DNA of 64,000 bases, taken from Eledone cirrhosa (lineage: Eukaryota). The stretch covers positions 42,842,001-42,906,000 of the forward strand of contig OZ024743.1 of NCBI GenBank assembly GCA_964016885.1. The letters run 5' to 3'. Below are positions 12,797 through 60,040 of the stretch, in pieces (the first letter of the stretch is position 1; each line of letters begins with the position of its first letter). The notes beneath the pieces are model-generated. The model had not been told where the DNA came from. It made no database searches and saw nothing but the letters and a program-made list of their open reading frames with translations. The position numbers and the translations under genes were made by a program.

Positions 12797-12988
12797 AAGA
12801 AAATATCGCAAGAAACCAGATGGACCATACCGCACCATAGTACTCGATACTTAGGGCAGTAGAGTGGGTAATAGGAAAAGAGTCAGGACCGCGACGGCTG
12901 AGGTCCGGTCGTTTCGACAGCTAGATTCAAACTAAATCTTGTTCGGATCTAGCTGTCGAAACAGTCTGGTTCCTGCCTCTTTTCCTAT
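12797..12988 (-). mobile_element. Tail-plus-fold-back mini-element (family also at 35451, 36043, 59811 and 30513)
   Basis: Shared about 85-nt block aaccagatggaccata..gtactc..tacttaggg.agtagagtgggtaatagga, followed by an imperfect hairpin ending ttcctata. Confidence 0.8.
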
Positions 12989-13068
12989 ATGTATATATAC
13001 ATATATATATATATATATATATATATATATATATATATATATATATATATATATATATATATATATAT

Positions 13069-13429
13069 ATGAAAGACGTAAAATAAGAAAATTATAATAA
13101 TTAACTTACTTAAGTTTCACACCAACTAATTAGTTTCTGAATGGGGATATACATAGTGTTCAAATTATAAAGAATTAGTATATCTACCAACATATTTATA
13201 CAGAAGTATACTTACGTTAGCAAGATATAGGTTTTGTCTTAGTAACTTTGTGGTTCAATACAAAAATGTATCGCCAGGGATCTTAGCCGAGAATTGACTC
13301 CCTGATGAAGAACGGATTCTCCATAGTTTTGAACACTATGTATATCCCCTTTCAGAAACTAATTAGTTGGAGTGAAACTTAATTAAGTAAGTTAATTATT
13401 ATAATTTTCCTATTTTACGTCTTTCATAT
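13069..13429. repeat. Fold-back element with about 95-bp inverted arms and a truncated HHR core (CTGATGA at 13302) in the loop
   Basis: 13069-13164 pairs with 13328-13429; starts at the end of a (TA)n tract. Confidence 0.85.
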
Positions 13430-14093
13430 AATCATTCTAAATTTTTTAGAAACCCCCCCCCCCCCCCCCCCCCCCCCCACCACCACCACGGAGATGGTGG
13501 CGGGAGGGATGAAAAAACACACACAGATACTACTAAATTGTCAGGAGCAGCAAGACATAAGCTGACCACAACACCAACAACACTACCAAAATAAGGGTAG
13601 AGGTCAGATGTACTTAACAATAGCAAACACAAACACTACAGGGAGCCTCAACCCAGAAAGAATTTCTATAGACTTCGGACTGAGGAATGCTCTCAAAACT
13701 GACCAATGGGAAGTTCGACATTTTTTTGCTATTTTGTTCCTTTACCATCTTATTCCTTCTACCACTTTATCAATTTTTTTGAGCTAACTCCAACAATAAC
13801 AACACTACCAACACAAGAATTGAGGTCAGATGTACTTAACAATAACAAGAACAACAACTACAGATTGGCTTGCATCAGAACGAATTTCTATAGACTTTTG
13901 AATGAGGAATGGTCTAACAACTGACCAATGAGAGGAGAAGAGGCCCTTTGACACTGAAATTCGTTTGTTTGAATTCATATGATTCCAGTTCCTCAGTGAA
14001 ATAACAACCCAACCAGGAACTGGGCATATCAGAGTATTGACAAAGTTATACACCTCAACAACATATGTACTTGTCTATACCACCCTAATTCGA

Positions 14094-14148
14094 ACTGCCT
14101 GAAGAAGTCACAGCCAAAGATGGCTGTCACCGAAATATATATAGCAGT
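14094..14148 (+). ncRNA. Type I hammerhead ribozyme
   Basis: actgc-CTGAAGA-agtc acagcca aaga tggctgt cacc-GAAA-tatata-TA-gcagt. It lies in a PLE-like 3' end (about 13440-14300) that has an internal direct repeat (13565-13705 and 13795-13930). Confidence 0.85.
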
Positions 14149-14949
14149 AATAAACGAAGCTAAATTTTAAACATTTGACTTATTTATTTTATTTTATTTT
14201 ACACTACTCCGGAGTAACCAAACCAACCTGCGCACTTCGTCGAGTGCTCCAATCTGCATACTGAGGTGTTGGTATACAACCAACATATACTCAAAATCTC
14301 TCCTCTCTCTCTCTCTCTCTCTCTCTCTCTCTCTCTCTCTCTCTCTCTCTCTCTCTCTCTCTCTCTCTATATATATATATATATATATATATATATATAT
14401 ATATATATATATATATATATATATATATATATATAATTGTGTTAGCGTATAAAGCAGTATGCTATTTGAATGTTACATCAATGCAAAATGGACTGTAGAT
14501 TTCGGAATAATGTGAACGCAAGAAAGATGTTGGAGTGTCACCTGGTATTTTATCTGATTGTTTTAATTTTTGATAGTAAAAACCATTCTTAAAATGAAAA
14601 TAGTAAGAAACAAAATCGTTTATGCTATTGTTTGTCTTCCCATGTTTTAAGCCTCAATCTATTAATAGCTGCCAAAAGATGTGGGAGAATAACGCCGCCT
14701 GTTGATTGACGTGTGTAATGTTGTGTGCGATTTCCTGTCAAATGATGTGTGTTTTTGTTTATGTCTTTATGCCCATTTTCCTTTCAATACAAATGTTATG
14801 TCTTACTGCAATAGAGTGAATTAAATTATGTTTGGGCTTGTGTATGCGTGCATGTATAAGTCGAATATTGAGTGTTTGGTTGTAAATGTCTATCAGGGAT
14901 GGTTGTTATGCTTATGTGTGTTATGGCAGAAGTTACGTGTGTGTGATTT

Positions 14950-57619: not shown

Positions 57620-57880
57620 TAAATATAAGTATGTATACGTACATACATATATGTATACAGACGTACAGTAGTATGTATATATACATACATGCACATATAC
57701 ATATATGTACGTATGGATTCACCGAACATTTATTTTAATGCTCGGTGTGTTTGTAAACAAACATCCCGAATTAAGCCGTACAGTGTCTAGCAACCATCGT
57801 TGCTCATTTGTTCAACACTGACAAAGGAACGCTGTACTAGTTTCAAGCTTATTAGCTATCGTCAGCAACGTATACCTTCC
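57620..57880 (-). mobile_element. Second copy of the 10981-11815 mini-element, with HHR at 57830-57870
   Basis: cgttg-CTGACGA-tagc taataa gctt-GAAA-ctag-TA-cagcg plus a homologous downstream block. Confidence 0.85.
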
Positions 57881-58000
57881 TATATATATATATAAAATTT
57901 CAGGTTATCAATAAAGAAGTGATAATATATCGTCACGTTAGAGATGAACAGCGTACGTGTAGGTTTGCTCAACGAGTATAAATTATATTCCGGAGAAAAT

Positions 58001-59631
58001 GTAGAAAAGATGAATATAAAATGAAAGTGCTTTTTTTTAATGCCGAATATTATGATGATGTACTTGGGAAGGCTGGACACCTAGATAATATAGAGTATAT
58101 AGTCGACGATCACCAAAACACCCAAAATAAATCTCATAGAGGTAGAAATTGCATAGAATCACCACCATACATACACTACCGCAATAAACACACTAATAGT
58201 AGCACACCACCAAACAGAAGGCGATGTAAATAGTATATATGGTACAACCCGGTCTATAAGAACTCTATTAAAACCAATCTACCCTCACAATTCTTTCGAT
58301 TAGTTAAAAAACACTTTCCAACATCACATAAATATAATAAAATCTTAAACCCTAACACTATTCAACTTTCATATTCAACCGCCCCTAATATTGAACAAAA
58401 TATAAAAAAGCTTAACGCAAAACGGTTGTATAAACGCCTTCCAACACATAACAATTCACGTAAAAGATCAGCTATAACATCACAAAACAACAAAAAACAT
58501 CCCGTCCTGCCTAAGCAACCTCATCAACCCATCCATGCCAATACAACAACGCAAAATTATAACTGTAACTGTGTCCAACCAGGAATGTGTCCGTTGAAGA
58601 ATCAGTGTCTTGAACGCAACATCTTATACAAATGTACTATCGAATCGGATAATCAGAAGTGGTACTATGTGGGGTCTACATCCATCTCCTTCAAATCTCG
58701 CCTTTATAGACATCGTTACTCGATAAAACATGAAAACCAGCGTTATGTAACAACACTCGCAGACAAGGCTTGGCAGCTGCACGAAAATAACCAACAATTT
58801 AACCTAAAATGGGATATAATAGCTTCTGCCCCTCCATATGCCAGGACAAGAATTTTGTAAATTGCGTAATATGGAATTATTTTGTATTATGAAATCCAAA
58901 AATATTTTATTAAATAACAGAATAGAGCGATCGTTATACTGTAACCATCGCTTAAAATCTACATTTTCATATTACAAACACTACCAGGATTGAACGCCTG
59001 TCTCCATCTCCGTTTGATTGTCAAAATACATATTAACATTCTCTATTAGTCTTAATTCTATAAACTCTTCTATTCTTTACCATTTAATATAAACTGCTAT
59101 AGATAAAATGAGATTTCTTAATTCAATTCCCTAATGCATATACCAGCATTGTTGTTATTCAGTAGCAGTGACAATCTCCCTCTTCCTTAATTGATACTTT
59201 ATATTTAATACTACTACACCAAACGACCAGCCCTGTCCATTGTTCAATTGGTCAAGTATAGATTAAAATAGGCGCTCCCAAATATTCTTATTTAGATAAA
59301 ATAAACCATATACTCATTGTATTCTCATTAGAAAACCTTTATATACTTGTTTACCAGTAAATTGGATTGCCATCTGTTATATACTCTCCCCTCTCTTCTT
59401 CCTTTATTACAACTAATATAAATACTTCAAATTTTCTGATTTTTTCCAATTTATCCAATATCTCTGAAGAAGTGACAACTGATTATACATTTGCTATCGA
59501 ATAATTGCTCACATTATATGATTACACAAGCAGCGATACATAGGTATTCCGTCTGTTACAGAAACATATGACGTTACCTAATAAATTCCTTTTTAAAAAA
59601 AAGCACTTTCATTTTATATTCATCTTTTCTA
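58001..59631 (+). mobile_element. 5'-truncated Naiad-type PLE with a short inverted 3'-end copy at the 5' junction
   Basis: Pseudo-ORF 58035-58993: YYDDVLGKAGH..IWYNPVYKNSIKT..KHFPTSH..SYST..CNCVQPGMCPLKNQC..LY..YVGST..FKSR..H..CKL..CNH. 58001-58040 is the reverse complement of 59593-59631. HHR-like CTGAAGA (59464)..GAAAcatatg (59561). Confidence 0.88.
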
Positions 59632-59810
59632 TATATATATATATATATATATATATATATATATATATATATATATATATATATATATATATATATACAC
59701 ATATATATACGTATATATACACACACACACACACATATATATATATATATATATATATATATATATATATATACGTATATATACACACACATATATATAT
59801 ATATATATAT

Positions 59811-60040
59811 AACGGAGGAGCTGTGGTAAGGAACCAGATGGACCATAACGCACCAGAGTACTCAATACTTAGGGTAGTAGAGTGGGTAATAGGAGAGAGT
59901 ATAACCCCGACGGCAGAGCTGAAGCCGTTTCGATGGCTATTTCTGGAATAAAGGAAGAGTTTTAAAAAAACTCTTCCTTTAGTCCAGAAATAGCTGTCGA
60001 AACGGCTTGAACTCTGCCGTCGGGGTCATACTCTCTCCTA
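59811..60040 (-). mobile_element. Tail plus about 75-bp-arm hairpin copy of the 12797 family
   Basis: ataggagagagtataaccccgacggcagag..gaagagtttt / aaaactcttcc..ctctgccgtcggggtcatactctctcctat. Confidence 0.88.

Follow-up and report, generated by a model that had tools for sequence, protein, structure and literature searches.

Mini palindromes of Eledone cirrhosa as stubs of a Hydra-clade Penelope-like element, probably primed from both ends of a cut (TA)n target

The window analyzed here is a 64,000-nucleotide (nt) stretch of Eledone cirrhosa DNA (assembly GCA_964016885.1, contig OZ024743.1, positions 42,842,001 to 42,906,000, forward strand, taken at its full length), and the subject is a family of TA-flanked mini palindromes that recur in it. 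These palindromes are stubs of a very common Penelope-type element. The parent is an endonuclease-bearing (EN+) Penelope-like element (PLE) of the Hydra clade, as judged from protein motifs that match the description of that clade in PMC8557442. The most probable origin of the stubs is that they are the ends of this element, formed when a (TA)n target is cut and its two ends each prime reverse transcription (RT) on the element RNA at one of two fixed sites, the two cDNAs running off the RNA 5' end and being joined head to head. In the 3.0-Gb genome, at least 33,439 exact matches were found for a 32-mer of the tail and 16,710 for an internal 23-mer, with none for the reversed control pattern of either.

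Positions are numbered along the strand quoted in the original prediction, which is the antisense strand, with +1 being the first G of TAATA/GGA (site 2; the slash marks the boundary). The outer end of the tail, at about -81, is site 1, and the two sites are separated by 81 nt. A total of 377 loci were retrieved, and their arms were parsed against real subfamily copies. The internal-motif sample comprised the first 100 matches on one contig, corresponding to 86 events, and the tail-anchored sample comprised 98 events out of the first 100 matches of the tail 32-mer. Tandem-array loci L227-L229 (n = 3), one event at a locus edge and the false partner of L177 (scored as solo) were dropped before counting, while the identical long arms L292 and L293 were merged. 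The C-selected sample L230-L259 was excluded from the end distributions. L327, a different family with part of the tail in common, was nevertheless counted as a solo.

Walking inward along long arms yielded reverse transcriptase and GIY-YIG fragments and one intact copy, L331, a longer parent with a complete ribozyme and an open reading frame (ORF) of the kind that the original prediction had called for. L331 consists of a 0.83-kb tail-bearing inverted arm followed by a partial tandem that contains the ORF of 768 amino acids (L331:3933-6239) and a tail-less end at TCC/TATA. The ORF, of the reverse transcriptase/GIY-YIG type, includes QFDIESYY, YRDDGL and VIY..YIG, with RLRWR at position 84 (R replacing K), DKT at 166, CNCPDRSIC at 621, CNLC at 719 and CKH at 747. 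A single Cys lies between VIY and YIG, and the match is to the Hydra-clade motif set without CCHH. The nearest Atlas clusters of this ORF scored 0.96 to 0.99, and some of them carry RVT_1 or GIY-YIG. Pfam gave no match on the full ORF, and RVT_1 was matched, at E 0.01, on only one of four fragments. L331:1211-7026 has the appearance of an intact young element; a deletion of about 430 nt distinguishes its two copies of the 3' untranslated region (UTR), the long form being that of the inverted arm.

Within the internal-motif sample, 116 of 128 arms started in two narrow windows, 53 at -82 to -80 and 63 at -6 to +3, so that arm end points were not random. It had been claimed beforehand that the inverted arm begins at a fixed site at the boundary of the pseudo-long terminal repeat (pLTR) and the tail, and this was borne out by 109 of 136 site-2 arms reading exactly ATA/GGA; most others varied in the flank or started one base later, like copy 36043. 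Two-armed events combined a site-1 start with a site-2 start in 172 of 181 cases, and the remainder had an obscured start (6), two tails (2) or what was scored as two site-2 starts (1). These pairs, together with L331, conform to the EN+ PLE layout of a pLTR in partial tandem, an inverted 5'-truncated copy and a one-sided tail, and the TA flanks and ATA/GGA starts conform to Hydra-clade insertion into (TA)n. A non-LTR retrozyme, described as tandem noncoding monomers that each carry a complete hammerhead (bioRxiv 10.64898/2026.07.22.740005), does not correspond to the mini copies, which are dispersed stubs with the ribozyme 3' half only.

Each arm, when read from its TA flank, is antisense, and for this reason each was read as cDNA of sense RNA for which a 3' end of the target was the primer. 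The original prediction had instead taken the inverted arm to have been copied from the tail-bearing strand, by fold-back or as its second strand. In its full form this would have one cDNA, primed at the tail end, snapping back and copying itself until it stops or is cut at TCC/TA, with asymmetry arising as the palindrome, being unstable, later suffers deletion. Such an origin fits the observation that most insertions are near-perfect hairpins with private variants common to both arms; internal arm deletions do occur (12797, L316 and L317), and the portion of PMC8557442 dealing with the tail suggests that it results from endonuclease-mediated resolution of an intermediate. The arm lengths speak against it. 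Of 171 measurable pairs, 23 had arms of equal length, and the tail arm was the longer one in 68 and the shorter one in 80; the excess reached 10 nt or more for the site-2 arm in 38 pairs and for the tail arm in 19. In 12 pairs the tail arm stopped inside the tail and thus held no template for the other arm, and this class, to which copy 30513 belongs, largely refutes a fold-back. Of 23 events belonging to the youngest subfamily, 5 had the same asymmetry, and in kilobase-long copies the ORF-bearing arm was the tail-less one in six of eight with a scored tail (L091, L092, L093, L096, L098 and L331, the tail-bearing arm carrying the ORF in L094 and L095). When strongly asymmetric events of the tail-anchored sample were considered, the inner end of the site-2 arm remained at +50 to +62 in 14 of 17, even though the partner was short. 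Later loss of the center was deemed unlikely to have caused the asymmetry on the strength of these last three observations. Furthermore, 8 of the 86 internal-motif events were tail-less arms with no detected partner, and some arm pairs were of different subfamily haplotypes. A fold-back is consequently considered improbable. Since the tail-less arm was longer in 80 of the 171 pairs and the tail arm ended inside the tail in 12, both arms are probably separate cDNAs, each started from one target end, with a head-to-head joint between them.

The first 50 nt were identical between the arms of one insertion in 48% of 110 events, compared to 12% between events, and 83 of 124 arm pairs had an identical haplotype, compared to 10% expected at random. 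One or two RNA molecules may serve as the template for each insertion. Both sites offer UAU for a primer ending in ATA, 6 to 8 nt ahead of similar bulged hairpins (checked in L331), of which one is in the tail (site 2) and one in the 5' UTR (site 1). As the mini copies do not extend to the part of the 5' UTR with the site-1 hairpin, the stubs probably derive from the coding transcript and not from propagation of a mini-family. At the joints, the arms overlapped by 0 to 7 nt in 98 of 171 and were separated by a short filler in 73, and the mean microhomology was 1.5 nt versus 0.65 nt by chance. The joined flanks of 191 events were compared with fetched loci, and no clean empty site was present among the matches listed.

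Inverted chimeras are a known type of artifact, and assembly or library artifacts could in principle produce hairpins. This origin was regarded as next to negligible. Two fixed starting sites are used, and the divergence between the arms has grown with age; both TA-joined loose ends were also present in DNA contigs of public runs, and a palindrome was found in a run with a second organism label and from a second study.

The inner ends were clustered too. For the tail-anchored sample (n = 175 arm ends), 118 were at +50 to +62, 34 at +1 to +49, 10 in the tail and 13 beyond +62. The earlier view of the turn as the point where first-strand cDNA stopped was upheld insofar as it is a cDNA stop; it is, however, where both cDNAs stop, mostly at two fixed places, and the turns are strongly clustered instead of forming the free series that had been envisaged. 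In sense orientation, the base at +58 is the A within TTAGT or TCAGT, and (T/C)AGT resembles the initiator consensus. An internal promoter with Inr and DPE elements is described for Drosophila Penelope in the relevant part of PMC2377424. Where an arm joined (TA)n directly, the base following GGACT (+58) was C in 188 cases and G in 78, against C in 42 and G in 41, counted by hand, one base earlier (Fisher P = 0.001). In 43 long arms, the parental +59 was always A or G, with G in 4 of the 43, and was never C. The same preference was seen at local filler junctions, C following 16 of 25 arms that ended at +58 versus 19 of 111 that ended elsewhere, and the C was present on both arms of many palindromes. 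Untemplated G at 5' ends has been attributed to cap copying in L1 and SVA insertions, in the section of PMC3287187 on this point. The main turn cluster therefore likely marks the predicted capped RNA start, the nonparental C fitting a copied cap.

Three other tallies around +58 were set aside. The single-base spacer between two +58 ends (357 C/G versus 56 A/T) was not used as proof as the parental G at +59 yields the same string, and both the raw tallies of the base following +58 (A 5757, C 2560, G 1818, T 316) and the spacer counts (811 C, 543 G) are confounded by filler templated from the partner arm.

The minor peak was one base wide. At +17, 72 arms ended into AT-only sequence, compared to 6 at +16 and 14 at +18 and +19 together; these exact counts supersede a first hand tally of 19 of 49 loci, with 1 at +18. 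CpG decay of ends at +18 and +19 was rejected as the source of the peak, as 14 cannot supply 72. Copy 36043 in the window ends at +17 on both arms. The peak is likely to represent the predicted ribozyme cut of the template RNA.

This assignment is based on the fold of the full motif, the minimum-free-energy structure of which is a type I hammerhead three-way junction with stem I CCCC/GGGG, core UUGANAA, a long stem II, G10.1-C11.1, GAAA and stem III, and with the predicted cut after GUC at +17 (GUC^GGGG). The arm sequence had been identified from the outset as the 3' half of a hammerhead, which was confirmed. Cleavage is predicted at GCCG-UC^GGGG and not at the "TA" set off in the original prediction, and the missing half, expected to be CUGANGA as in the canonical Hydra-clade core, was found to be UUGANAA. 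All four bases occur at core position 7, while U3 and A8 are kept: U3-A8 was present in 13 of 13 alignment rows, 93.6% of cells were paired, and hand counts in the divergent subfamily gave U3 in 50 of 50 and A8 in 47 of 50. Four ribozyme pairs were changed on both sides, all in one divergent row. As described in the part of PMC3088659 on these variants, U3-A8 is a natural covariation of the C3-G8 pair and is active in vitro. The motif has the core, the G10.1-C11.1 pair, the GAAA and the NUH cut site of a type I hammerhead and is regarded as a putative ribozyme. Hammerhead searches limited to CUGANGA miss whole PLE families.

It is also conceivable that twin priming is true while the inner stops are pauses of the enzyme at RNA structure or preferred joining microhomologies. 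Both stops are indeed in a folded region, the ACT/AGT near +58 is self-complementary, the joints have more microhomology than chance, and in one subfamily the extra C is not evident. Against this, the peaks remain where an arm joins (TA)n without a partner, and the strong stem has its foot at about +43, away from +58, which is instead midway along a helix of weak conservation (five of seven pairs depart only by mismatches). The exchange of TTAGT and TCAGT is the sole common variation at the +58 site, and the +17 peak, one base wide, falls on the cut predicted by the fold. Stops of this kind were judged unlikely, though they deserve the most weight of the alternatives. For rotifer PLEs, the pertinent part of PMC3846280 proposes self-priming on an antisense transcript, which gives head-to-head palindromes and accounts for both that layout and the palindromic junctions. 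Under this model a particular arm should also include the whole of its partner, and it leaves unexplained the stops at a sense-strand ribozyme cut, the extra C at a sense initiator and the sense-strand hairpins behind both outer ends; it was considered highly improbable.

Several observations weigh against the proposal of two target-primed cDNAs running off a capped or ribozyme-cut RNA. The arms of L300, L301 and L184 differ at several linked sites. The older subfamily of the 12797 type is without evident extra C (at most 2 ambiguous cases in 30 matches), with its turn cluster in the same place. The ends are spread over +50 to +62 and not confined to one base, which means that trimming must be assumed, and many fillers are templated from the partner arm, with the result that some of the C at +59 could be slippage products. 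Rfam gave no hammerhead match for the Penelope family in the window or in five long copies, and the ribozyme fold was no more stable than shuffles (z scores of -1.55 and 0.03). The start site, the cap and the cut are each predicted from scars in the DNA. In addition, sampling was confined to best hits or to the initial 24 Mb of a single contig, and young copies are favored by exact patterns.

The mechanism proposed for the stubs is as follows. The endonuclease would cut both strands of (TA)n, with the protein bound to two hairpins near the RNA 5' end. Each target 3' end (..ATA) would pair with the UAU located 6 to 8 nt ahead of one bulged hairpin, one strand being extended from site 1 and the other from site 2. 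The usual template would be a capped transcript starting at (T/C)A+1GT inside ribozyme stem II, such that the 5' ribozyme half could not cut in cis. Both cDNAs would run off 58 nt past site 2, giving lengths of at most 139 and 58 nt, and the cap would sometimes be copied as an extra C. Less often, the template would be an RNA cut by a complete ribozyme, with the cDNAs stopping at +17. The cDNA 3' ends would then be joined through 0 to 7 nt of microhomology or a short filler and filled in. Long and full-length, ORF-bearing copies would come from read-through RNA that escapes the cut, which would explain their rarity; tail arms passing +195 numbered 6 of 99.

A more specific and tentative hypothesis, to which we give slightly less than an even chance, is that Hydra-clade PLEs integrate through a programmed double RT. 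Two hairpins would place two RT starts, and the mini palindromes, in their tens of thousands, would be run-off products with centers that map the capped start and the ribozyme cut. The 5' ribozyme would be disarmed and the 3' copy would cut, so that only RNAs escaping the cut give full-length elements. If true, it would be the first in vivo readout of, and function for, PLE hammerheads.

Much of the framework is already known, namely, the PLE layout (PMC8557442, PMC3846280), the two tail-bounding RT starts in vitro (PMC11167929) and L1 twin priming, as far as the portions of these papers on each subject extend. The C-terminal EN+ PLEs of the Hydra clade (Craig et al. 2021, PMC8557442) are described there with the same single ORF, RW[K/R], DKT, CxCx5C linker and GIY-YIG with CxxC and CxH, and with the same (TA)n targets, pLTR hammerhead, partial tandems, inverted 5'-truncated copy and one-sided tail. 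The present family differs in its UUGANAA core and its stem II of about 60 nt, compared to the CTGAN(G)A cores and short stems in the Hydra rows examined in File S2 of PMC8557442; in its unit of 3.1 to 3.5 kb, the clade being generally under 3 kb; and in its 81-nt tail, compared to 30 to 40 bp in that account. The ribozyme sequence of the mollusc family Hydra-1_Obim, from the same source, also differs from the one found here.

In the in vitro reaction of the PLE Poseidon (Poseidon_Ac; Frangieh et al. 2024, PMC11167929), the protein, a predicted dimer, cuts and extends both DNA strands, and RT starts at two internal sites bounding the tail. This resembles the present family in the two tail-bounding starts, the AT-rich target and the cutting and extension of both strands. 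The passages on this reaction do not connect these starts with the pair of arms in a single insertion. According to them, RNA reads with an end at the ribozyme cut were not found and cleavage was dispensable in vitro; in the present genome, by contrast, a peak of stops coincides with the predicted cut. In L1 twin priming, as set out in the corresponding part of bioRxiv 10.1101/2024.08.27.596794, both target ends likewise prime cDNA, and the ends are joined by microcomplementarity to give a 5' inversion. However, the second L1 primer is used at chance internal sites and the arms are mostly nonoverlapping, whereas here both sites are fixed and marked by hairpins, and the same 58 nt are usually duplicated. 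The U3-A8 hammerhead variants of Perreault et al. (2011, PMC3088659) show, in the portion concerned, the same C3-G8 to U3-A8 covariation. In the present family U3-A8 is fixed over tens of thousands of copies and the likely promoter start is inside stem II; the ribozyme here is a predicted one, in contrast to those variants, which are active in vitro.

No paper applying twin priming, cap run-off or ribozyme-cut run-off to PLEs was found in the literature searched; early Penelope studies in subscription journals may be relevant here. PLEs are the closest retrotransposon relatives of telomerase, and the passages on the subject in PMC8557442 and PMC11167929 state that the origin of their inverted arms and one-sided tail, and the role of the hammerhead, are unresolved. 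Predictions to the base follow from the present family (RT beginning at two sites, a transcript capped at +58, ribozyme cleavage at +17 and two cDNAs joined head to head), and the intact copy L331 makes the insertion mechanism testable. The family likewise accounts for a large class of short palindromes, which are overlooked by annotation tools or misread as microRNA-like hairpins.

Within the window, all five copies of the original prediction were recovered where it had placed them (Table 1). The 81-nt tail ending in GGGTAATA/GGA is common to copies 12797, 35451 and 59811 (motif on the plus strand) and to 36082-36164 (motif on the minus strand), and the inverted arms end in TCC/TATA or TC/ATAT. 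Copy 30513 starts, as had been noted, at the same "atagga" point and is a tail-less arm from site 2; it is not a lone arm, being head to head with an outer-tail stub. Of the arm lengths first given as about 16, 45 to 55 and 75 bp, the shortest and longest stood and the middle one is 45 nt, with an internal deletion. The arm at 59965..60038 includes the initiator-like TTTAGTC (A at 59981 = +58), the hammerhead GAAA at 59999-60002 and the predicted cut between 60021 and 60022.

Table 1. Arms of the mini palindromes in the window
Position	Strand	Feature	Remarks
12797..12936	-	Tail-bearing arm, older subfamily, to about +61	Tail 12797-12873 (outer end decayed); ribozyme 3' half after site 2 at 12874
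12941..12985	+	Tail-less arm, site 2 to +57, 45 nt	Internal deletion of about 20 nt; end TCC/TATA
30514..30562	-	Tail-less arm, site 2 to +49	Partner arm holds no template for it
30563..30580	+	Tail-bearing arm cut down to 16-nt outer-tail stub (30563-30578) plus TA	Head to head with 30514..30562
35451..35538	-	Solo tail-bearing arm	Stop at +7, then TA-rich repeat; no inverted arm
36044..36059	-	Tail-less arm, +2 to +17, 16 nt	End exactly at predicted ribozyme cut; then 5-nt filler 36060-36064
36065..36164	+	Tail-bearing arm, end likewise +17	Partner of 36044..36059
59811..59963	-	Tail-bearing arm to about +72	Tail 59811-59891, site 2 at 59892
59965..60038	+	Tail-less arm to about +76, about 74 nt	Private substitution in common with partner 59811..59963

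A number of further structures were noted at the retrieved loci. Runs of (TA)n are present inside some head-to-head junctions (the 5' junction of L095; G000:C1:172998111) and could be due to later insertion or to TA synthesis during joining. The targets of L167, L176 and L149 are (GATA)n or (GAT)n, with a longer match (GATA) between target and site 1. In L327 and the flank of L156, a different family, with CTGATGAATGAAAC-type ribozyme stubs close by at other loci, has a portion of the tail in common, namely, the site-2 hairpin GAGTACTCAATAC. A satellite array at G000:C1:14234900-14258000 (L227-L229 and L335) is made up of 58-nt units from the inner tail plus TA and extends over at least 23 kb.

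Other elements are also represented in the window. A canonical type I hammerhead of another family (CTGATGAG..GAAA) is located at 53884-53928 (+), 55 nt ahead of a (TA)n run, and matched Rfam Hammerhead_1 at 31.7 bits, slightly below the gathering score of 34. A second TA-flanked inverted repeat at 13070-13400, with CTGATGAAG near its center, is probably a stub of a different PLE family. Long palindromes occur at 8963-9526, 51283-51656 and 45414-45748 (arms of 282, 186 and 167 nt, respectively), the first of which is centered on a (TA)n run and is thus tail to tail, the opposite of the Penelope stub layout.

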